This document shows, piece by piece, positions 2,871 to 13,740 of a stretch of DNA of 64,000 bases. How positions within the stretch are numbered: position 1 is the first letter of the stretch; every line of letters begins with the position of its first letter. The stretch comes from Candidatus Aquidulcis sp. (lineage in GTDB: Bacteria > Chloroflexota > Anaerolineae > Anaerolineales > UBA4823), in the NCBI GenBank assembly GCA_020723385.1, contig DYIZ01000009.1:3676-67675 (forward strand). The letters are read 5' to 3'. A model generated the notes under the pieces. That model worked only from the letters and a program-made list of their open reading frames with translations, did no database searches and was not told the origin of the DNA. Both the position numbers and the translations under genes were made by a program.

Positions 2871-3893
2871 ATGATCACCATCCGCGATTTAGCTGAACAA
2901 CTTGGGGTTTCCGTGGCAACTGTGTCGCGCGCCCTCAATGACCAGTTGGGTGTAAGCCCTGAATTGAGGCAAAGAGTGTTGGACCTGGCTGCGGAGATGA
3001 ATTACCGTCCGAATGTTGCCGCGCGCAACCTCAGTACCGATCGAACCCATACTGTCATTTTCATGGTTCACCGGCGTCGTTTCCCGGCTGCAGCAGATCC
3101 GTTCTATTCCTACATCATGCACGGGATGGAGGCAAGTCTCAGTCTGGAAGGTTACAGTATTATGCTGTTGACTGTGACTGATGAGCAGCTTGCACAGGGG
3201 CCTCAATCCCTACCGGCCTTACAAGAAAAACGAGCAGACGCAGTTGTTCTGGCTGGCCCGGAGTTTTTGCCGGGGTTCATTCTTTCGGTCGCCCGGTTAG
3301 GTTTGACTACCTTATTGGTTGATAATGCCTTGCGCGAGACCCCATTTCCTGCTGTATTGGCCGATAACGAAGGCGGCTCACGCACATTGACCGATCATCT
3401 CATCAAAGTGCATGGGCATACCCATATCGCTTTTTTACAAGGCCCGAAAGGGTGGATCAGTTGCGAGGAACGTTCTGCAGGATACCAATTTGCAGTCAAC
3501 GCCGCCGGATTGGAATCTCACATTGTCGAATCGGAAGACACGACACCTGAAACCGGGCAAGACGCCTTTTTGCGTGCGATCAAAGACAGGCCCGAAACGA
3601 CCGCGATTGTCGCATCCAATGATGCGATGGCTATTGGAGCCATGCGCGCCGCACGCCAGCTTGGCATCAAGATGCCGCAAGAGATGGCGATCGTTGGCTT
3701 CGATAATATCTTTTGGTCAGCCTACGCGGATCCATCATTGACGACTGTCAGTATTCCCACCATAGAAGTTGGCCGGCTGGCGGCTCGGTTATTGCTCGAG
3801 CGGCTGTACGGAACCGTAACTGCGTCATCCAGAACTATTGTGGCCACCCAGTTGGTTATTCGCAACTCTTGCGGGTGCATGGAAGCAGCATAA
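2871..3893 (+). CDS. LacI family transcriptional regulator
   Basis: HTH ITIRDLAEQLGVSVATVSRALN plus a periplasmic-binding-fold core (ASNDAMAIGAMRAARQLGIKMPQEMAIVGFDN). Confidence 0.9.
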   Translation: MITIRDLAEQLGVSVATVSRALNDQLGVSPELRQRVLDLAAEMNYRPNVAARNLSTDRTHTVIFMVHRRRFPAAADPFYSYIMHGMEASLSLEGYSIMLLTVTDEQLAQGPQSLPALQEKRADAVVLAGPEFLPGFILSVARLGLTTLLVDNALRETPFPAVLADNEGGSRTLTDHLIKVHGHTHIAFLQGPKGWISCEERSAGYQFAVNAAGLESHIVESEDTTPETGQDAFLRAIKDRPETTAIVASNDAMAIGAMRAARQLGIKMPQEMAIVGFDNIFWSAYADPSLTTVSIPTIEVGRLAARLLLERLYGTVTASSRTIVATQLVIRNSCGCMEAA

Positions 3894-4171: not shown

Positions 4172-6718
4172 ATGAAGAAAACCAATCCCCTTTTTCTTGT
4201 TTTTAGCCTGCTGATGATCCTCAGCATGGTCCTGACTGCCTGCGGTAATGCAACTGAGACAGTAGTGACTGCACCCACTGATACAAGTGCGCCGCCGACA
4301 AAACCGCCTGCCTCCGAACCGACCAAGACACCCCTCCCCGAGGGCGTAATCGCGGTTGAAGAGGGCGCCAGCATCGTCTTCTCCGGCTGGGGCGACGAAA
4401 CCGAGCAGCAGATCTATCGCGACTCGATTGCGCGCTTCAACGAAGTTTACCCGAACGTTACCGTAGATTTTCAGCCTATCCCGGCAGACTTCCAGACCAA
4501 AATGAAAGCAGCCATGGCTGGCGGCACCGCCGCGGATGTTTTCTACGTAGACGACCAACTGATGACAGCTTTTGGCCCCACCGGCCAGCTCCTGCCGTTG
4601 GATGAGTACATGAAAGAGGCCGGCGTCAATCGCTCTGATTTCATCACTGCCTTGCTGTCTATCTTCACCCTCAACAATGTGACCTACGCGCTGCCCAAGG
4701 ACTGGGGCACGCTGGGTTTGGTGTACCTGCCCGAGGCCTTCGCCGAGGCCGGTATCCCCGAGCCAACCGCGGACTGGACGTGGGATGATCTGAAAACAGC
4801 GGCTGAGAAAATCAAGGCTACCGGAAAGTATGGCGGCTTCTGCCAGAACGCTGACTGGGCGCGCTTTGCCCCGTGGGCTTTCGGAAATGGCGGCGCTTAT
4901 GCTAACGCTGATTTCACTGCACCCATGATGAATACACCCGAAGTCAAGGGTGCGGCACTGTACCTCACCGATATGTACAAGCAGGGCTTGATCGTAACCG
5001 CCTCGGATGTAGGCGCAGGCTGGTGCGGCGAAGCCATCGGCAAGAAACTCGTGGGCATGACCTATGAAGGCGGCTGGATGGTCAACTTCATGCGCACAAG
5101 CTACGCAGATGTAACCTGGAAAGCTGTCTCGCTGCCCGCTGGCCCCAAAGGCAATGCCGATGTGATCTTCACCAATGGCATCGGCGTCAATGCGGCTACC
5201 AAGTACCCCAAGGCTGCCGCGGCCCTGGCGTTATTCCTCACTGGTAAAGACAACCAGGCTGAGATCGTCAAGACCGGCTTCGCTTACAGCACTCACCCCG
5301 ATCAGCTCGATATGGTTGTGGATCCCAATGACAAAGCTATCGCCCAGGGTGGGATGTTCGAGCTGACCCGTGTGGCCTATTGGGGTCCCAATACCGGTAA
5401 AGTCAACGACGCGGTTGGCAAAGCCCTCGAGCGTGTTTACCTCGGCGACCAGACCGTGGATGAGGCTTTCGCCCAGGCTGAGCAAGAAGCGTCCGAATTC
5501 CTCACCGGCGGCGGCGCTTCGGTCGGCACTGGCCTGACCGGGTTAGCCGTTTTGGAGGTCGAGGAAGGCGCCAGCATTGTCTTCTCCGGCTGGGGCGACG
5601 AGACCGAGCAGCAAATCTATCGTGACTCGATTACGCGTTTCAACGCGATTTACCCCAACGTCAAGGTGGATTTCCAACCGATCCCGGCAGACTTCCAGAC
5701 CAAGATGAAAGCAGCCATGGCTGGCGGCACCGCCGCGGATGTCTTCTACGTAGACGATCAACTGATGACGGCCTTCGGCTCCACCGGCCAACTGATGCCG
5801 CTGGACTCCTACATGGCCGCCGCGGGCACCGGGCGTGGCGATTTCATCCCCGCTTTGATGTCCATCTTCACCCTGGATGGCAAAACTTACGCGCTGCCCA
5901 AGGACTGGGGCACGCTGGGTTTGGTGTACCTGCCCGAGGCTTTCACCGAGGCGGGCATCCCCGAGCCAACCGCGGACTGGACATGGGATGATCTGAAAAC
6001 CGCAGCCGAGGCGATCCAGGCCACCGGCAAGTATAGCGGCTTCTGCCAGAATGCTGATTGGGCGCGCTTCGCCCCGTGGGCTTTCGGCAACGGCGGGGCG
6101 TATGTCAGCCCCGACTTCAAGACCGCTACGGTTGATACCCCTGAGATCAAAGCGGCTGCCACCTTCGTCGCCGACATGAAGAATAGCGGCGCTATCGTGA
6201 CCGCCTCGGACGTTGGTGCAGGCTGGTGCGGCGAGGCCATCGGCAAGAAACTCGTGGGTATGACCTACGAAGGCGGCTGGATGGTCAACTTCATGCGCAC
6301 GAGCTACGCGGATGTGGCGTGGAAAGCTGTCTCACTGCCCGCTGGCCCTCAAGGCAATGCCGACGTGATCTTCACCAATGGCATCGGCGTCAATGCGGCT
6401 ACCAAGTACCCCAAGGCTGCTGCAGCCCTGGCGATCTTCTTGACCAGCCGCGAGAATCAAGCCGAGATCGTCAAAACCGGCTTCGCTTACAGCACTCACC
6501 CGGATCAGGTGGATCTCGTTGTTGATGCCAACGACAAAGCCATCGCCCAGGGCGGCCTGTTCGACCTGACCCGCGTTGCTTACTGGGGACCCAACACCGG
6601 CAAGATCAACGACGCAGTCGGCAAGGCCCTGGAGCGCATCTACCTCGGCGATCAGACCGTGGATGAGGCTTTCGCCCAGGCGCAGCAAGAAATCCAGGAT
6701 ATCCTCGACGGAAAATAA
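4172..6718 (+). CDS. ABC transporter (CUT1-type sugar) solute-binding lipoprotein with two tandem full-length binding domains
   Basis: Lipobox LTAC and RBS AAGGAG upstream. Residues from VEEGASIVFSGWGDETEQQIYRDSI (nt 4355) recur from nt 5558, a period of 1203 nt (401 aa), with most positions identical. Confidence 0.9.
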   Translation: MKKTNPLFLVFSLLMILSMVLTACGNATETVVTAPTDTSAPPTKPPASEPTKTPLPEGVIAVEEGASIVFSGWGDETEQQIYRDSIARFNEVYPNVTVDFQPIPADFQTKMKAAMAGGTAADVFYVDDQLMTAFGPTGQLLPLDEYMKEAGVNRSDFITALLSIFTLNNVTYALPKDWGTLGLVYLPEAFAEAGIPEPTADWTWDDLKTAAEKIKATGKYGGFCQNADWARFAPWAFGNGGAYANADFTAPMMNTPEVKGAALYLTDMYKQGLIVTASDVGAGWCGEAIGKKLVGMTYEGGWMVNFMRTSYADVTWKAVSLPAGPKGNADVIFTNGIGVNAATKYPKAAAALALFLTGKDNQAEIVKTGFAYSTHPDQLDMVVDPNDKAIAQGGMFELTRVAYWGPNTGKVNDAVGKALERVYLGDQTVDEAFAQAEQEASEFLTGGGASVGTGLTGLAVLEVEEGASIVFSGWGDETEQQIYRDSITRFNAIYPNVKVDFQPIPADFQTKMKAAMAGGTAADVFYVDDQLMTAFGSTGQLMPLDSYMAAAGTGRGDFIPALMSIFTLDGKTYALPKDWGTLGLVYLPEAFTEAGIPEPTADWTWDDLKTAAEAIQATGKYSGFCQNADWARFAPWAFGNGGAYVSPDFKTATVDTPEIKAAATFVADMKNSGAIVTASDVGAGWCGEAIGKKLVGMTYEGGWMVNFMRTSYADVAWKAVSLPAGPQGNADVIFTNGIGVNAATKYPKAAAALAIFLTSRENQAEIVKTGFAYSTHPDQVDLVVDANDKAIAQGGLFDLTRVAYWGPNTGKINDAVGKALERIYLGDQTVDEAFAQAQQEIQDILDGK

Positions 6719-6884
6719 TTTGTTGTTCTTGACCCTCTCTTTGCCCACGCCTGTTCTTAGGTGATGAGAGGCCTTTCTTCTCCTCTCCCTCCATCCTCGT
6801 TTCTTGGCGAGGATGGAGGGACCCAAGGGGATCAAGATTCTCCACATCCCCAGCTTAAGCCCTCAGACCTTTCGGAGGTGTTCG

Positions 6885-7904
6885 ATGTCCACAGTCACAC
6901 GCACCGGCCGTAGTATTTGGCGAAATCCTCGCGCCCGCACTGAGGCGATGATGGCCTATTTATTCTTGTCGCCTTACCTGATCGTGACGTTGATATTCAC
7001 CATCGGCGTCATTCTCTTCGCGATCTATATCAGCTTTAATCATTTCGATTTGTATACCTGGCCGCCCAAATGGGCGGGGTTGGATAACTATATCAAGGCG
7101 CTCAATCCAAGCGGCAAGTTCATCCGGTCGTTGGTCAACGTTCTCTGGTACGTGGTGATCGTCGTGCCAACTCAAACCGCGTTGGCCCTGGCTCTGGCAA
7201 CACTCATCAATGTCAAGGTAAAGGGGTCACAACTTTTTCGCACGCTGTTCTACGCGCCCAGTGTGACCTCATCGGTTGTGATCACCATGATCTTCTGGTG
7301 GTTGTATCTGAAGACTGGTTATCTCAACTTCGGTTTGTCCAAACTTTGGGCGGTTTTTGGCGGCAATTGGCTCCCCGTCGAGTGGCTGAATAACCCCCGG
7401 GGTTTGATTCAACTGTTTGTCACCGCCTTTGGGGGCAATATCCCCTCTAATCTTTGGTATCTGCGCGGCCCCAGTGTGACCTGGATGGCGATCATGTTCC
7501 AGAATATCTTCACCACCGCACCGACCTTCATGATCATGTTCCTGGCCGCTTTGCAGGAAGTCTCACCCTCCTTGTATGAAGCCGCTTCGATTGATGGCGC
7601 CAATAAATGGCAGCAGTTCTGGAAAATTACCCTGCCCATGCTGCGACCAGTGCTTTTATTGGTTATCGTGTTGGGCACAATCGGCACCTGGCAGATTTTC
7701 GACCAGGTGAAAATACTCACCGCCGGTGGGCCTCTCGATACCACGTTGGTGCCGGTCTACCTGATTTACTCGGAGGCCCTGGGAACCAATGGACCGCCAA
7801 CGATGGGGTATGCCAGCGCCATGGCCTTCGTTCTGGCGGCGGTTATCTTTTTCTTTACCTTCGTCCAGCGCCGCTTCATCGAGCGTGGCACGGAACAATA
7901 CTAA
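6885..7904 (+). CDS. Carbohydrate ABC transporter permease (MalF/UgpA-type)
   Basis: Track ORF 6804..7904. ATG 6885 is preferred (GGAGGTG 5 nt upstream). It is a multi-TM protein with the EAA-loop context LYEAASIDGANKWQQFWKITLPMLRP. Confidence 0.88.
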   Translation: MSTVTRTGRSIWRNPRARTEAMMAYLFLSPYLIVTLIFTIGVILFAIYISFNHFDLYTWPPKWAGLDNYIKALNPSGKFIRSLVNVLWYVVIVVPTQTALALALATLINVKVKGSQLFRTLFYAPSVTSSVVITMIFWWLYLKTGYLNFGLSKLWAVFGGNWLPVEWLNNPRGLIQLFVTAFGGNIPSNLWYLRGPSVTWMAIMFQNIFTTAPTFMIMFLAALQEVSPSLYEAASIDGANKWQQFWKITLPMLRPVLLLVIVLGTIGTWQIFDQVKILTAGGPLDTTLVPVYLIYSEALGTNGPPTMGYASAMAFVLAAVIFFFTFVQRRFIERGTEQY

Positions 7905-7919
7905 ATCCAGGAGGCGACG

Positions 7920-9194
7920 ATGGCTACCGTATCTCTCGCACGTCCTGTTCGACCGATTTCCCCGGCTGTGGCTTCTGCGCAGCGGCGGATCAGCCGGGCA
8001 ATCGTCTATATCGTTTTGATCGTCATCGGGTTGATTCTCTTCACCCCATTCATTTTGGCATTTCTGGGCACCTTCAAGACCGATGCCGAGATCATTGCCT
8101 GGCCGCCGACCTTCTTCCCGGTCAAATGGCTGGTAGAAAACTGGCCCAGGTTGTGGCGCACTGATCTCGGCGGGCAGCCGCGCCCGGAGGGGTCTACCTC
8201 GCTGGGGTTGGTGGCGGGTGTATTCATATTCTTCGTCACCTTCCTGTTCGCCGGTCTGAGCAGCGAGGAAAAGGGCAAGGGATTGCCGGCCGCCATCGGC
8301 CTGCCGATTTGCCTGGGACTGGCTATCCTCACCGGTTTTGGAAGCTCCCTCTACCTGCGCCTGAGCTTCGAGGTCAAAAATACCACCTTCCTTTGGACCA
8401 CCGGTATCGCAGTCTCCATTTTTGCTCTGCTGGCAGTGGGCATCCTCTATATGTCTCGCCCCGATTGGCAGCGCGTGATCCTCGCCATGCTGCTGGGGAT
8501 TGCGATTGGCGCGGTCACGACGGTCCTGTTCCAACAATTGGCGGTTCTGGCCGGGGGCGGGCGGTTCTTCCGCTGGTTGTTCAATACGGCCTTGCTTTCG
8601 GTCATCCGCGCTTTCACAATGCTGGTTTTCTGCTCTATGGCCGCCTACGCCCTGGCCCGGTTGAGATTCCCGGGTAAAGGGTTGATCTTCAACTTCATGC
8701 TGCTTTCCATGATGATCCCCGGCGCTGTCACGCTGATTCCGACCTACGTTATCATCTCCAAGATGGGTTGGGTGAACATGGCTTATGCCTTGATCTTCCC
8801 CAGTATCGTCAATGCTTTCGGCATTTTCATGCTGACGCAGTTCCTCAAGGCCATTCCGCATGAACTGGAGGAGGCCGCCTTTATTGACGGGGCCTCCTAT
8901 TTCCAGATCTACAAAGACGTGATCCTGCCGCTGGCGCGCCCTGCCCTGCTGACACTGTTCATCCTGCAATTCCAGGGGATGTGGAATGACTTCCTGGCCC
9001 CGCTGCTGTACTTGAACACTCCGGATATGTTTGTCCTCAACGTGGCGCTGAGCACCTTCCAACAGCAGTACAAGGCTCAGTGGAACCTGACCCTGGTCGG
9101 CGCAATGATCAACGCCGTGGTGCCGTTGGCGATGTTCTTCTTCTTCAGCCGGTATTACATCGAGGGCGTGAGCTACGCAGGGGTAAAGGGATAG
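7920..9194 (+). CDS. Carbohydrate ABC transporter permease (MalG/UgpE-type) with about 140 extra hydrophobic residues after TM1
   Basis: EAA loop LEEAAFIDGASYFQIYKDVILPLARP. At 424 aa it is longer than the roughly 280 aa I expect. The extra region carries four hydrophobic helices by eye (res ~95-225). Confidence 0.88.
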   Translation: MATVSLARPVRPISPAVASAQRRISRAIVYIVLIVIGLILFTPFILAFLGTFKTDAEIIAWPPTFFPVKWLVENWPRLWRTDLGGQPRPEGSTSLGLVAGVFIFFVTFLFAGLSSEEKGKGLPAAIGLPICLGLAILTGFGSSLYLRLSFEVKNTTFLWTTGIAVSIFALLAVGILYMSRPDWQRVILAMLLGIAIGAVTTVLFQQLAVLAGGGRFFRWLFNTALLSVIRAFTMLVFCSMAAYALARLRFPGKGLIFNFMLLSMMIPGAVTLIPTYVIISKMGWVNMAYALIFPSIVNAFGIFMLTQFLKAIPHELEEAAFIDGASYFQIYKDVILPLARPALLTLFILQFQGMWNDFLAPLLYLNTPDMFVLNVALSTFQQQYKAQWNLTLVGAMINAVVPLAMFFFFSRYYIEGVSYAGVKG

Positions 9195-9312: not shown

Positions 9313-9936
9313 ATGCTCAAAGCCTTTCACTTTTTCGGCCGCGCGATTTCCCTTTGGTGGCGTGAATGGGTGCATTTGACCTTCCTCAATATTGCCTGGC
9401 TGGCGTTGCAAGTCACCATCGTCGCCGGGCCGCCAGCTACCGCAGCAATGTACGCGGTTGCCCGGCGTTTGGCAGATGATGAATACCTGGAGCTGCGTCA
9501 TTATTGGCAGGCGATGCGCCAGATGTTCTGGCCAGCCTGGCGGTGGGGCGCAGTCAACCTGGTGGTGATCGGCGTCATCGTGGGTAACTTCTGGTTTTAT
9601 CAACATACCAGCGGCCTTCTAGTGACTCTCCTGCGGGTGATTTGGGCGACGATTGCCATCTACTGGTTTATCGCCAACCTGTTCTACTGGCCTTTCTGGC
9701 TGATCCAGGAAGACCACCGCATGGTTACAACTTATCGCAATTGCCTGTTGTTACTGGGCAAAAAGCCCGTACTCATCCTGACCATTTCTGTGCTTTGCGC
9801 CGTTTTGATCGTTGCCAGTATTCTCATCACCCTGCCGCTGGCGGCTTTGTTGATGATCTGGCTGGCCATTATCGGTATTGTGTTGGTCAAGGACGAAGTG
9901 AAGGGAATATCCAAACCAATTCAGAACACGGATTGA
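9313..9936 (+). CDS. DUF624 (YesL-like) membrane protein
   Basis: [32 protein letters not shown]... plus four or more TM helices. This family typically accompanies CUT1 sugar ABC operons. Confidence 0.7.
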
Positions 9937-9940
9937 AATA

Positions 9941-10879
9941 ATGAAATTGCAACGTACCTCAATTACCCCAATTCTCATCCCCGATCCAACCTCGGATTGG
10001 GAGACCTATAATGTTTTCAACCCGGCGGTGATCCACCACAACGGGCTGTTCCACATGCACTACCGAGCCCAGGGGCTGGATTGGGTCAGCCGCATCGGGT
10101 ACGCCGTCAGCGCCGACGGGCTTTACTGGAACCGCCTGCGCCGCCCGGTGTTGGAGCCGCAAGACGGCTTTGATTCGCGTGGTCTGGAAGACCCGCGCGT
10201 GACCGAAATTGATGGCGCGTTTTTCATGACTTATACCGCCTTCGGAAGCGAGTTCAGCGGCTCCGGGGAACCGACTCACACCGGGGGCGGCGTGCTGCCC
10301 ATGATCGCGCGCAGCCAGAATCTGATCACCTGGGAACGGCTTGGCCCCATCGTGACCGGCGAGGACAATAAAGATCATGTGCTGTTCCCCAGGAAAATCA
10401 ACGGGCGCTACGTTGCCCTGCACCGCCGGCCGCCCCAGGTCTGGGTGGCTGAAAGCGACGATATGATCACCTGGCCCGAGAAATATATGCGCCCGATCTT
10501 TGGCCCGCGGCCTTCTGAGAGTGAGAATAGCCGCCTCGGCTGGGATTCCTTGCGGGTTGGCAACGGCGGCGTACCCATCGAAACCGATTACGGCTGGCTG
10601 ATGCTCTATCATGCTTATGATCCAGGCCGCACGTATCGCCTCGGCGTGTGCCTGCTCGACCGGGATGATCCAGCAAAAGTTATCCACCGCCCGCAGGATT
10701 TTATCTTCGAGCCGCAGGAACTCTGGGAGCTGCGCGGCGATGTGCCCAACGTGGTCTTTAGCTGCGCCAATCCGGTTGTGAATGGCACTGTGTATATATA
10801 TTATGGCGGCGGCGATCACGTTATCGGTCTGGCGACCGCACCGTTGGCCGATTTGCTGAACTTTGCCCGATTTGGATGA
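9941..10879 (+). CDS. Glycoside hydrolase family 130 (beta-mannoside phosphorylase-like)
   Basis: [36 protein letters not shown]...[21 protein letters not shown] is the GH130 five-bladed propeller signature. Confidence 0.8.
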
Positions 10880-13059
10880 AAACAATGACCGACCTTTGGA
10901 CTCTCTCCGAAACTACTTTCGATCCCAATACCCAACACCATAAAGAGACGATCTTTACGATCGGTAACGGCTACCTCGCCACGCGCGGCGCGTTCGAGGA
11001 GGGCTATCCCAATGACCGGCGGGCGACATTCGTGCATGGCGTGTTCGATGCGGTGCCGGTTGTCTTCACCGAGCTTGCCAACGCCCCCGATTGGCTGCCA
11101 TTTACCGTGCTGCTCGACGGCGAGCGCTTCTCGCTCGACAGCGGAACGGTGGAAAGCTTCAATCGGTCGCTCGATCTGCGCACCGGGGTGCTGACTCGCA
11201 GCGTCCGGTGGATTTCTCCCGCCGGGCGGGCCGCTACGATCAAATTCGAGCGCTTCGCTTCTCTCGCCGACGAGCACGTTCTGCTCATCCGCTGCCAGGT
11301 CACCCCGGATTTCGAAGGCACGGTTGAGTGCCGCGCCGCCATCAACGGCAACACCGATAACGAAGGCATCGCTCACTGGCGCTGGATCTCACAAGGCTCA
11401 CGCGGCGAATCGGTCTACCTTCGCACCCGCACCCGCACGTCCAATATTGATTTCGTTTCTGCGATGCGGCTGGTTGGCGTCGCGGGTAATTGTCTGGATT
11501 CGAGTTTCTGCGACGTGGAGAATGCGCCGACTCTCTTGATGAAAATGGCTGCCGAGCCAGGCAAAGCCATCATCGTGGATAAGTTTGTGGCGGTCGCCAC
11601 CATGCGTGAGTCCGTTGACCCACTGGACCTGGCTCTCCGCCGCCTCGAGGCCGTCGTGGATTGGCCGGCTGCTTTCGAAGCCAACGCTGCTGCCTGGGCG
11701 CGTGAGTGGGAGCGCACCGACGTTATCATCGAGGGCGACGATGAAGCGCAGATTGCCTTGCGATTTAACCTGTTTCAGATGCTCATCGCCGCGCCGCGGC
11801 ACGACGCCGCCAAGAGCGGCGGGGTCAACATTGGGGCCAAGACCCTCTCCGGCTTTGGCTACCGAGGCCATGCCTTTTGGGATACCGAAATTTTCATGCT
11901 CCCGCTATTCACCTATACTGCGCCGCATATTGCCAAAAACCTGCTGAACTACCGTCACCACCGGCTGCCCGCTGCCCGCAGGAAGGCGCACGACAATGGC
12001 TGGGAAGGGGCGATGTTCCCCTGGGAAAGCGCTGACACCGGCGAAGAAGTCACCCCGCGCTGGGTGCCGCACTACGCCGAACCGGCTAAAATGGTGCGCA
12101 TTTGGACCGGCGACATCGAAATTCACATCTCTGCTGATATCGCCTACGCTGCCCATCAGTATTGGCAGGCTGCCGGCGACGACGCCTGGTTCATCGAGAA
12201 AGGCGCTGAGTTGATCCTCGACACGGCCAAATTCTGGGCCTCGCGCGCTGAATGGAACGCCTCGGCAAGCCGCTATGAATACACCGACGTTATCGGCCCC
12301 GATGAGTATCACGAGCATGTGGATAACAACTTCTTCACCAACCGCATGGCGCAGTGGAATTTGCAGACCGCGCTCGATGTTTTGGATTGGCTGAAGATAC
12401 ATGCTCCGGCGAAAGCTGGCGACCTGGTTGATCGTCTCGACCTGAATGAAACCCGCCTGGGCCGCTGGCGGGAGGTGATCGATAAGATTTACCTCCCCCT
12501 GGGGAAAAATGGCCTCATCGAGCAGTTCGAGGGCTACTACCAGCGCAAGGATGTTGACCTGGAAGCCCTGGAGCCGCGCGACCGCTCGGCGCAGACTATC
12601 TTCGGCATCGAAGGCTGCAACGAGACGCAGGTGCTCAAGCAGCCAGACGTGCTCATGCTGTTCTACTTGTTGAATTCGATCTACTCCAACGGGATCGTGC
12701 GCGCCAACTACGATTACTATACCCCCCGCACCGATCATACCTACGGTTCATCGCTCGGCCCGGCGATCCAGGCGATCATGGCCTGCGAAGTGGGCCAACC
12801 CGACGAAGCCTATGAGCATTTCATCCGCGCCGGCCGCGCGGACTTGCGCGATGTGCGCGGCAACGCCGGAGATGGCATTCACGCCGCATCGGCGGGCGGC
12901 ATGTGGCAGGCAGTGGTTTTCGGCTTCGCCGGGCTGCGCGTCTCACCTGATGGCTGGACGATCAACACACGTCTGCCAAAACACTGGAAGCGCGTGGCAT
13001 TCAAGTTTTTCCGCCGGGGAAAACAAGAAGTCGTAGATATCAAGATTGATAACAGATAA
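10876..13059 (+). CDS. Glycoside hydrolase family 65 disaccharide phosphorylase (kojibiose/maltose/trehalose phosphorylase family)
   Basis: [22 protein letters not shown]...[18 protein letters not shown]...[16 protein letters not shown]. The ATGA overlap with the GH130 stop suggests translational coupling. Confidence 0.88.
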
Positions 13060-13086: not shown

Positions 13087-13740
13087 ATGACCATTTCAGG
13101 CTTTATATTCGATCTCGACGGCGTCCTCACCGATACCGCCGAATACCATTACCGGGGCTGGAAGCGGCTGGCGGACGAGGCGGGACTGCCCTTCACGCGG
13201 GAGGACAACGAGGCGCTGCGCGGCATCCCGCGCCGCGAGTCGCTGCTGCTCATTTTGAAAGGCCGCCTGTACCCCGAAGAAAAAATCCGGGAGATGATGG
13301 AACGCAAGAACCGCTATTACCTGGAATTCATCAAAGAAATCACCCCGCGCGATCTTCTGCCCGGCGCGGTCGCGCTTCTCGAAGAAATCCGAGCGGCCGG
13401 GATGAAAACGGCCATCGGCTCAGCGAGCAAGAACACCGGCGAAGTTGTAGACCGCCTGGGCATCCGCTCCTTGCTCGACGCCATCTCGGATGGTTACAGC
13501 GTCGAGCGGCAGAAGCCCGCTCCCGATCTGTTTCTGCACGCCGCGGCGCAATTGGGCCTGCCGCCCGGCGAGTGCGTGGTGGTGGAGGATGCCGCGGCCG
13601 GGGTGGAAGCTGCTCTCGCCGGAGGTTTTCGCACCATCGGGCTGGGGCCGGTCGAGCGGGTGGGTCAAGCCGAGCTGGTGCTGCCGAGTTTGGAAGGGGC
13701 GCGGTTGGCCAATGTCCTGGCAGCACTGGCAAATCGCTGA
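13087..13740 (+). CDS. pgmB: Beta-phosphoglucomutase
   Basis: HAD motif I FIFDLDGVLTDTAEYHY, then SASKN and the VVVEDAAAGVEAA motifs. It has the canonical position after a GH65 phosphorylase. Confidence 0.88.
   Translation: MTISGFIFDLDGVLTDTAEYHYRGWKRLADEAGLPFTREDNEALRGIPRRESLLLILKGRLYPEEKIREMMERKNRYYLEFIKEITPRDLLPGAVALLEEIRAAGMKTAIGSASKNTGEVVDRLGIRSLLDAISDGYSVERQKPAPDLFLHAAAQLGLPPGECVVVEDAAAGVEAALAGGFRTIGLGPVERVGQAELVLPSLEGARLANVLAALANR

Follow-up and report, generated by a model that had tools for sequence, protein, structure and literature searches.

Two MalE-like binding domains on one lipoprotein: a conserved tandem receptor in a predicted sugar-uptake operon of the Chloroflexota

Within a stretch of 64,000 nucleotides (nt) from Candidatus Aquidulcis sp. 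(contig DYIZ01000009.1; the whole stretch is called the window below), the gene at positions 4172 to 6718 encodes a solute-binding lipoprotein that consists of two complete and highly similar binding domains placed in tandem on a single polypeptide. This tandem lipoprotein is real, old, conserved and previously uncharacterized. The evidence comes from the anatomy of the protein, its conservation among genomes, the selection acting on both of its copies, the conversion tracts found in its relatives and the identity of the cleft motifs in its two halves. The interpretation that we favor, with a probability of roughly 0.7, is that the protein would present two near-equivalent binding sites on one lipid tether, kept alike by gene conversion. 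Such an arrangement would function much like that of the amino-acid importer GlnPQ, though unfused to the transporter and in a sugar system of the CUT1 type.

The open reading frame (ORF) lies on the forward strand and specifies 848 amino acids (aa) plus a stop codon at 6716-6718; a ribosome-binding site, GAAGGAG, sits 8 nt ahead of the ATG. The N-terminus, MKKTNPLFLVFSLLMILSMVLTAC, is of the lipoprotein signal peptide type, and the leader with its lipobox Cys is kept in every complete homologue but one (P0090). The family profile PF01547 (SBP_bac_1) matches the receptor in two stretches with 207.6 bits, the curated cut-off being 26. Both a repeat finder and the protein alignment gave a spacing of exactly 1203 nt, or 401 aa, for the direct repeat, with zero indels. 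An earlier, sequence-only reading of this DNA had described two complete and similar solute-binding domains on one lipoprotein, with start points at nt 4355 and nt 5558, a 1203-nt period and a Gly-rich linker (EFLTGGGASVGTGLTGLAVLE) between the copies. All of this was borne out, by the two SBP_bac_1 stretches, by the lipobox LTAC and, for the linker, by a predicted local distance difference test (pLDDT) below 50 at aa 446-456. The gene and its parts are the following.

4172..6718, + strand: tandem solute-binding lipoprotein gene (ORF and translation, two SBP_bac_1 stretches, Shine-Dalgarno sequence GAAGGAG)
4172..4243, + strand: signal peptide and lipobox LTAC, with Cys24 as the predicted lipid-anchored first mature residue (read from the translation)
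4244..4348, + strand: Thr/Pro/Ala-rich tether, aa 25-59 (35 aa; AlphaFold2 pLDDT <50 at aa 21-55)
4349..5500, + strand: binding domain 1 (D1), aa 60-443, membrane-proximal (hmmsearch envelope, MalE-like fold with pLDDT mostly >80, Foldseek matches to sugar-binding proteins)
4901..4996, + strand: most divergent patch of D1, aa 244-275, a beta-hairpin and helix of the C-lobe with the D1-type signature Ala250-Pro251
5501..5551, + strand: inter-domain linker, aa 444-460 (17 aa), LTGGGASVGTGLTGLAV (pLDDT <50 at aa 446-456)
5552..6703, + strand: binding domain 2 (D2), aa 461-844, distal, with a 4-aa tail between it and the stop (alignment, hmmsearch envelope, AlphaFold2)
6104..6199, + strand: patch of D2, aa 645-676, in which the single-domain state Thr-Ala is retained

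The inter-domain linker is the old C-terminal tail joined to the end of the tether. In the proteins P0019-P0042 and in many single-domain proteins, a conserved Cys stands 5-8 residues ahead of the fold (C[PF][LM]xVExGA), in both domains where there are two. This Cys is missing from the window protein at aa 55-62 and 455-462, and it is possible, judging from the motif, that a disulfide or a second anchoring feature was lost with it.

An AlphaFold2 model of the receptor, built with an alignment of 44 tandem sequences, had a pLDDT of 83.7 and a predicted template modelling score (pTM) of 0.50. The two MalE-like domains are confidently folded, and disorder (pLDDT <50) is predicted for the tether at aa 21-55 and for the linker at aa 446-456. 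Because the pTM is only 0.50, no fixed mutual arrangement of the domains is predicted, and the molecule is best pictured as "beads on a string". Foldseek comparison with sugar-binding solute-binding proteins (SBPs) gave a probability of 1.0 and template modelling (TM) scores on the target of 0.73-0.86, and MalE of the MalFGK2 complex (3PUY_E) was among the matches. Structurally, the receptor comes closest to oligosaccharide SBPs: Lmo0181, a cycloisomaltooligosaccharide-binding protein, GacH and MalE. These and CMMBP, the nearest solved structures, bind cyclic or linear alpha-glucans. The classification as a CUT1-type sugar receptor is upheld by the SBP_bac_1 family, the MalE-like fold and the BPD_transp_1 genes directly downstream. 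The sequence-only reading had also proposed to model both halves and to map the divergent patches onto the binding cleft: two MalE-like folds were indeed obtained, and the patches could be placed only through homology to the contacts of MalE and CMMBP. In a profile alignment the D1 patch corresponds to MalE residues about 167-205, and its hairpin to about 170-185 in the C-lobe.

The two copies are far from identical. D1 and D2 share 84.4% of their residues over 384 aa, close to the eight or nine in ten that had been estimated by eye, and 82.3% of their nucleotides. The 204 differences among 1152 nt are distributed 48/24/132 over the three codon positions. Pairwise Nei-Gojobori estimates give a silent divergence (dS) of 0.69, a replacement divergence (dN) of 0.10 and a ratio dN/dS (omega) of 0.15, which signifies purifying selection on both copies. 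The silent divergence is a mosaic, varying between 0.14 and 0.71 per 30 codons, an unevenness that was equalled in only 2 of 2000 shuffles. Silent and replacement differences cluster in the same segments, and the silent peak coincides with the divergent patch (aa 244-275 against aa 645-676), which is present as had been claimed. There, dS rises to 1.6-2.0, with an omega of about 0.1-0.2 (0.29 at most in any window of the scan) and no excess of replacements. Positive selection in the patches was rejected on the basis of these Nei-Gojobori window values (omega <=0.29). From its sequence, the divergent patch looks like older material that was spared by homogenization, rather than the product of rapid protein evolution.

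The tandem architecture is widely distributed. A search of 5.8 billion proteins recovered full-length tandem proteins in about 45 clusters; they are 830-871 aa long and 53-86% identical to the window protein. They stem from ENA, JGI, NCBI and Logan assemblies; all of the named ones belong to the Chloroflexota/Anaerolineae, and a single cluster contains eight full-length proteins that come from different assemblies. The tandem also occurs, in the same operon, in about 20 GTDB species-representative genomes, among them those of Ca. Amarolinea aalborgensis, Ardenticatenaceae, Promineifilaceae, an Anaerolinea sp. and the complete 6.36-Mb chromosome of a Ca. Leptofilum. A survey of tandem solute-binding proteins in the phylum, which the sequence-only reading had recommended, thus yielded some 20 species and 45 clusters. 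No three-domain protein was seen among these clusters, and in the databases the tandem proteins are labelled merely as sugar ATP-binding cassette (ABC) transporter substrate-binding proteins. About 58 related species have in the same operon a single-domain lipoprotein orthologue (55-84% identical), from which it follows that the tandem and single-domain forms do the same job. The median tether length is 34 aa in the tandem proteins versus 64 aa in the single-domain homologues, and all that sets the two kinds of system apart is how many binding domains there are and how long the tether is. Single-domain orthologues with 62-73% identity (best tblastn segment) were also observed in bins labelled Acidimicrobiia, Spirochaetota, Bacteroidota and Syntrophothermus (L051, L059, L061, L062, L065, L066, L072, L081 and L085), either because these bins are contaminated or because the operon was transferred horizontally.

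This distribution, together with the divergence of the copies, disposes of the notion that the duplication in the window is merely a repeat expanded by the assembler. Assemblers or natural populations can evidently alter the copy number of such a gene, as short contigs with a one-domain version of P0001, whose repeats are 97% identical, demonstrate. The copies in the window, however, differ at 18% of their nucleotides, and they are separable even by short reads since the longest run identical between them is only 56 nt; the frame is open across both copies and the linker; and dozens of independent assemblies, one of them a complete chromosome, share the architecture. We consequently reject an assembly artefact, to which we would assign only a negligible chance.

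The history of the duplication is written in the comparison of the halves. Across the 44 tandem proteins, the identity between the halves of one protein is 0.81-0.99, and the orthologues differ from each other by 15-45%. In 14 of the 44 the halves are 90-99% identical as the result of conversion tracts, which have run in either direction. Segment-wise comparison of P0005 with its relative P0009 shows that D2 positions about 169-348 were overwritten by D1, and the same comparison of close relatives shows D1 overwritten by D2 in P0031 and P0001. Among the 21 genes with DNA sequence, dS between the halves spans a continuum of 0.03-2.1, and dN/dS lies at 0.05-0.32. The same residues are invariant in D1 and in D2 across the 44 proteins, and the two domains evolve at similar rates between orthologues.

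In a neighbor-joining tree of whole domains, the tandem proteins fall into four clades with single-domain proteins interspersed, and within the clades the D1 domains cluster together, as do the D2 domains. This topology suggests an independent duplication in each clade. We judge such a scenario to be less likely: a junction motif, LTG[GE]G[AE]xxG, is common to all four tandem clades and is not found in the C-terminal tail of the single-domain proteins, and the Ala-Pro hairpin signature of D1 is present in three of the four, the fourth (P0027, P0040) having Lys-Pro or Gln-Pro instead. These common features lead us to favor a single old duplication followed by repeated homogenization.

There are some exceptions to this common origin. 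The junctions of P0044 and P0050 deviate from the common one and, to judge by sequence, these two and P0196 are truly independent duplications. The last of these is a CUT1 lipoprotein of an unrelated family (28% identical) with a tandem of its own: 856 aa, two SBP_bac_1 stretches, halves that are 84% identical and an acidic tether. It was the only other clearly two-domain protein among the best 150 representatives of 1.84 billion proteins, and a homologue search of the 5.8-billion-protein collection left it a singleton. With this sole further case, the tandem architecture is rare but recurrent. P0050 (L004, 658-3171) and P0044 (L005, 459-2987) have domains only 57% identical and an identical 32-aa signal peptide/leader; both stand just downstream of a GH65 gene and their permease sets are different, which looks like cassette exchange at one locus. 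The proteins P0278 and P0281 (447 aa, in the 90% cluster of P0001) are exact one-domain versions with the leader of D1 and the tail of D2, found on contigs of 1.8-2.1 kb. They represent either real recombinational collapse or a collapse by the assembler of the 97%-identical repeats of P0001. P0060 also resembles a collapsed copy.

Are the two domains specialized? The sequence-only reading had taken the patchy differences as a sign of diverging ligand or docking specificity. In a tandem that was subfunctionalized in this manner, D1 and D2 would differ in the ligands that they accept, in affinity or in docking behavior, like SBD1 and SBD2 of GlnPQ, and the gain would be a wider substrate range or a separation of capture from hand-off. 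Most of what we observed argues otherwise. In the window protein, D1 and D2 do not differ in the canonical MalE cleft motifs, nor at the homologues of the residues that contact the ligand in CMMBP (7BVT), namely G179, F223, W235, A236, Y298 and W302. The 60 sites at which D1 and D2 differ tend to vary elsewhere too: in a comparison set of 66 single-domain homologues their entropy is 1.52 bits versus 0.76 at the identical sites (p = 3e-12), and 98% of them are variable there, only one of the 60 (2%) being near-invariant as against 39% of the identical sites. The omega of about 0.1-0.3 in the patch shows no surplus of replacements. Finally, conversion, seen in 14 of the 44 proteins, has produced both receptors with two D1-type halves (P0005, P0025) and receptors with two D2-type halves (P0001, P0012, P0031), so that neither type is indispensable at either position.

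Several observations nonetheless weigh on the side of specialization and against the equivalence of the halves. The statistics that compare tandem with single-domain proteins ignore phylogeny. In the 30 diverged orthologues the derived hairpin of D1 is itself conserved (Ala191 0.97, Pro192 0.77, Leu194 0.90), although the single-domain proteins are conserved differently at positions 191-192 of the domain, with Thr and then Ala in 65 of 66 (99%). D2, for its part, drifts at positions 194 and 197, which are conserved in D1 and in the single-domain proteins. The separate clustering of first and second domains within the clades fits a lasting distinction between the two, and silent divergence is highest in the patch, as though selection disfavored conversion at that place. 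In the CMMBP alignment the hairpin starts nine residues beyond the stacking Trp W235, and none of the contacts listed above lies inside it. These changes of the hairpin suggest that in lineages like that of the window the halves may not be fully equivalent. A specialization of the halves therefore seems, on the sequences, possible but minor, and we consider it improbable as the explanation of the tandem. An elaboration of it appears slightly less probable still. In this scheme, a division of labor peculiar to the monoderm Chloroflexota would operate: the distal D2, with the ancestral surface, would capture the sugar at a distance from the membrane, and the membrane-proximal D1, with its derived Ala-Pro hairpin and short tether, would be specialized for docking or hand-off to the translocator, or else both would grip a polymeric glycan with avidity. 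Selection would then maintain exactly two copies in the face of recombinational collapse, and conversion would be tolerated only outside of the patch.

The opposite possibility is that the second site brings no benefit at all. The tandem could arise by unequal recombination and, being nearly neutral, come and go by drift, or D1 could be nothing more than a folded spacer that replaces part of the tether. Such a role for D1 would fit the shorter tethers of the tandem proteins (the medians of 34 versus 64 aa), a point that also tells against the two-site interpretation. Separate duplications with different junctions in P0044, P0050 and the unrelated-family P0196 are in line with an easy origin, and the one-domain P0278/P0281 and the collapsed-looking P0060 with a labile copy number. 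Against this stands the persistence of the tandem across four clades and some 20 species, with values of dS between the halves that reach beyond 2, although repeats of 1.2 kb should collapse easily. A spacer, moreover, needs no intact cleft, and yet D1 and D2 keep a common set of invariant residues, with an omega of 0.05-0.32; nor would drifting copy number readily account for the lack of three-domain proteins among the approximately 45 clusters. A tandem without benefit is thus, in our estimation, unlikely, and less likely than either form of specialization. That a recombination-prone 1.2-kb repeat has persisted through deep divergence with both clefts intact leads us to infer that two sites are advantageous.

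The interpretation with two near-equivalent sites can be elaborated into a working model. The protein would be the receptor of a CUT1-type sugar ABC importer in monoderm, Anaerolineae-type Chloroflexota, anchored to the membrane by the lipid on Cys24. Its disordered 35-aa tether would carry the two MalE-like domains, with the flexible 17-aa linker between them. Long ago, an in-frame internal duplication of the end of the tether, the domain and the C-terminal tail would have created the tandem, which would then have been inherited in several clades under recurrent conversion between the 1.2-kb repeats and purifying selection on both copies. Each domain would capture the same or a very similar oligosaccharide, close around it and compete with its neighbor to dock on the single MalF/MalG-like translocator. 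Two capture sites per anchor near the pore would result in a higher local concentration of receptor and a larger capture radius. The benefit of two sites, by analogy, would thus be kinetic. We infer the equivalence of the ligands, the docking of both halves and the gain in fitness from the observations given above.

The genomic context is consistent with a role in sugar uptake. The receptor is the first gene of a conserved operon, in which genes for the permeases, a DUF624 protein, GH130, GH65 and beta-phosphoglucomutase follow. Around the receptor, the window contains the following genes.

1690-2772, + strand: LacI-family regulator, the first of two, upstream of the receptor (Pfam/NCBIfam)
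2871-3893, + strand: LacI-family regulator, the second of two, directly upstream of the receptor (Pfam/NCBIfam)
6804..7904, + strand: MalF-like permease (BPD_transp_1 match)
7920..9194, + strand: MalG-like permease, 424 aa (BPD_transp_1 match)
9313-9936, + strand: DUF624 membrane protein (Pfam/NCBIfam)
9941-10879, + strand: GH130 beta-mannoside-phosphorylase-like protein (Pfam/NCBIfam)
10876-13059, + strand: GH65 phosphorylase (Pfam/NCBIfam)
13087-13740, + strand: beta-phosphoglucomutase (Pfam/NCBIfam)

The genes for the DUF624 protein, GH130, GH65 and beta-phosphoglucomutase also flank the homologues in other genomes. The best match of the GH130 protein is beta-1,2-mannobiose phosphorylase, at 308.6 against a curated cut-off of 450 and hence below it; the GH65 protein matches only the generic model, and the beta-phosphoglucomutase passes its equivalog cut-off. 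The conserved cleft motifs and the sugar-phosphorylase operon are indirect evidence that the receptor may bind a sugar and deliver it to the translocator, and the combination of GH130, GH65 and beta-phosphoglucomutase points to a putative substrate other than the ligands of the nearest solved receptors. No ORF with both a Walker A motif and LSGGQ, as expected of an ABC ATPase, was present within the 64-kb window, and the ATPase of the importer must therefore be encoded elsewhere. CUT1 systems often share an ATPase that is encoded at another site, so that its absence here is no argument against membership of this class. As listed, the MalF-like ORF opens with a TTG at 6804 (366 aa); an ATG at 6885 would give 339 aa and is probably the true start, as the orthologues are 337-339 aa in length. 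Two LacI genes precede the receptor in the window, versus one each in L001 and L002. In Ca. Leptofilum (L001, 7101-9917) a fusion of beta-phosphoglucomutase (HAD) and GH65, 938 aa in length, is situated upstream rather than downstream of the tandem receptor.

The MalG-like permease has an unusual feature. Between its first and its canonical second transmembrane helix are four extra hydrophobic helices (aa 95-113, 122-140, 158-176 and 186-204), and the insertion that the sequence-only reading had remarked upon is therefore real. A tie to the tandem receptor did not hold: counted by species, a long MalG accompanies 14 of 19 tandem receptors and also 14 of 50 single-domain ones (L002 among them), and in five tandem systems the MalG is short and it is the MalF that is long. 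A strict coupling of tandem and long MalG was rejected on account of its occurrence with single-domain receptors, the apparent enrichment being confounded by phylogeny. Related loci show two architectures, either a MalF of ~340 aa with a MalG of ~425-470 aa or a MalF of ~415-480 aa with a MalG of ~300 aa; the extra membrane mass thus resides in either the one permease or the other.

A characterized tandem receptor of a CUT1 sugar system was not found in the searchable literature, in which only work of the GlnPQ type surfaced; the sequence-only reading had likewise known of none. Tandem domains as a device to raise receptor density have been studied only for amino-acid importers whose domains are fused to the transporter. 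A conserved, lipid-anchored MalE-like tandem would carry the principle over to the uptake of sugars, in a phylum that has received little study and whose members include, as filaments of wastewater, Ca. Amarolinea and relatives of Ca. Promineifilum. It also provides a clean case of concerted evolution within a single gene, and natural controls in the form of the same operon with one domain, with two near-identical domains or with two diverged ones. If the halves are equivalent, as we expect, the receptor would be an instructive yet unsurprising variant. Its value rests mainly on the natural comparison of one with two domains and on concerted evolution, not on a new specificity.

Most of the closest known systems are single-domain proteins. 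Chloroflexota orthologues such as P0057 in locus L002 have domains 55-84% identical to those of the tandem and lie in the same operon; some have the long MalG, and all are lipoproteins. The closest solved structures are those of Lmo0181 (5F7V, cycloalternan), the cycloisomaltooligosaccharide-binding protein 9XF5, CMMBP (7BVT) and GacH (3JZJ), with an E-value of 7e-28, a Foldseek probability of 1.0 and a TM score of 0.8-0.86 on the target. They share the aromatic stacking positions with the halves of the window receptor; their identity to them is only 20-25% and all have a single domain. LpqY of LpqY-SugABC (PMC7608808) and the periplasmic MalE of MalFGK2 (PMC6906923) resemble it in fold, family and MalF/MalG-type partners, LpqY in its lipid anchor as well, and the same docking and scoop-loop mechanism would be expected for the window receptor. 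Both of these have one binding domain per molecule, whereas the window receptor has two and a Thr/Pro-rich tether.

In GlnPQ, tandem binding domains are well established, as the sequence-only reading had stated, and they bind independently and without cooperativity, compete for docking and have a linker whose length tunes the rate of transport (PMC8025302). The likeness of the window receptor to GlnPQ of Lactococcus lactis and other Gram-positives is considerable: two complete domains on one polypeptide, a short flexible linker, a position near a type I ABC translocator and a monoderm host. There are also differences. The domains of GlnPQ are fused to the transmembrane domain, whereas the window receptor is a separate protein that ends at 6718, before the start of the permease at 6804/6885, and is predicted to be anchored through its lipobox Cys. 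GlnPQ domains bind amino acids, whereas those of the window receptor are MalE-like SBP_bac_1 domains of 384 aa each. The binding domains of GlnPQ are small and of the SBP_bac_3 type. GlnPQ is a homodimer with four domains, in contrast to the MalF/MalG-like heterodimer with its one docking site in the window. The domains of GlnPQ clearly differ in specificity; a like difference seems improbable for the halves of receptors of the window type, which are 81-99% identical and homogenized by conversion, even though D1 keeps its own hairpin change. The window receptor is thus a lipoprotein member of the CUT1 MalE-like family, probably GlnPQ-like in its working but outside of the GlnPQ type.

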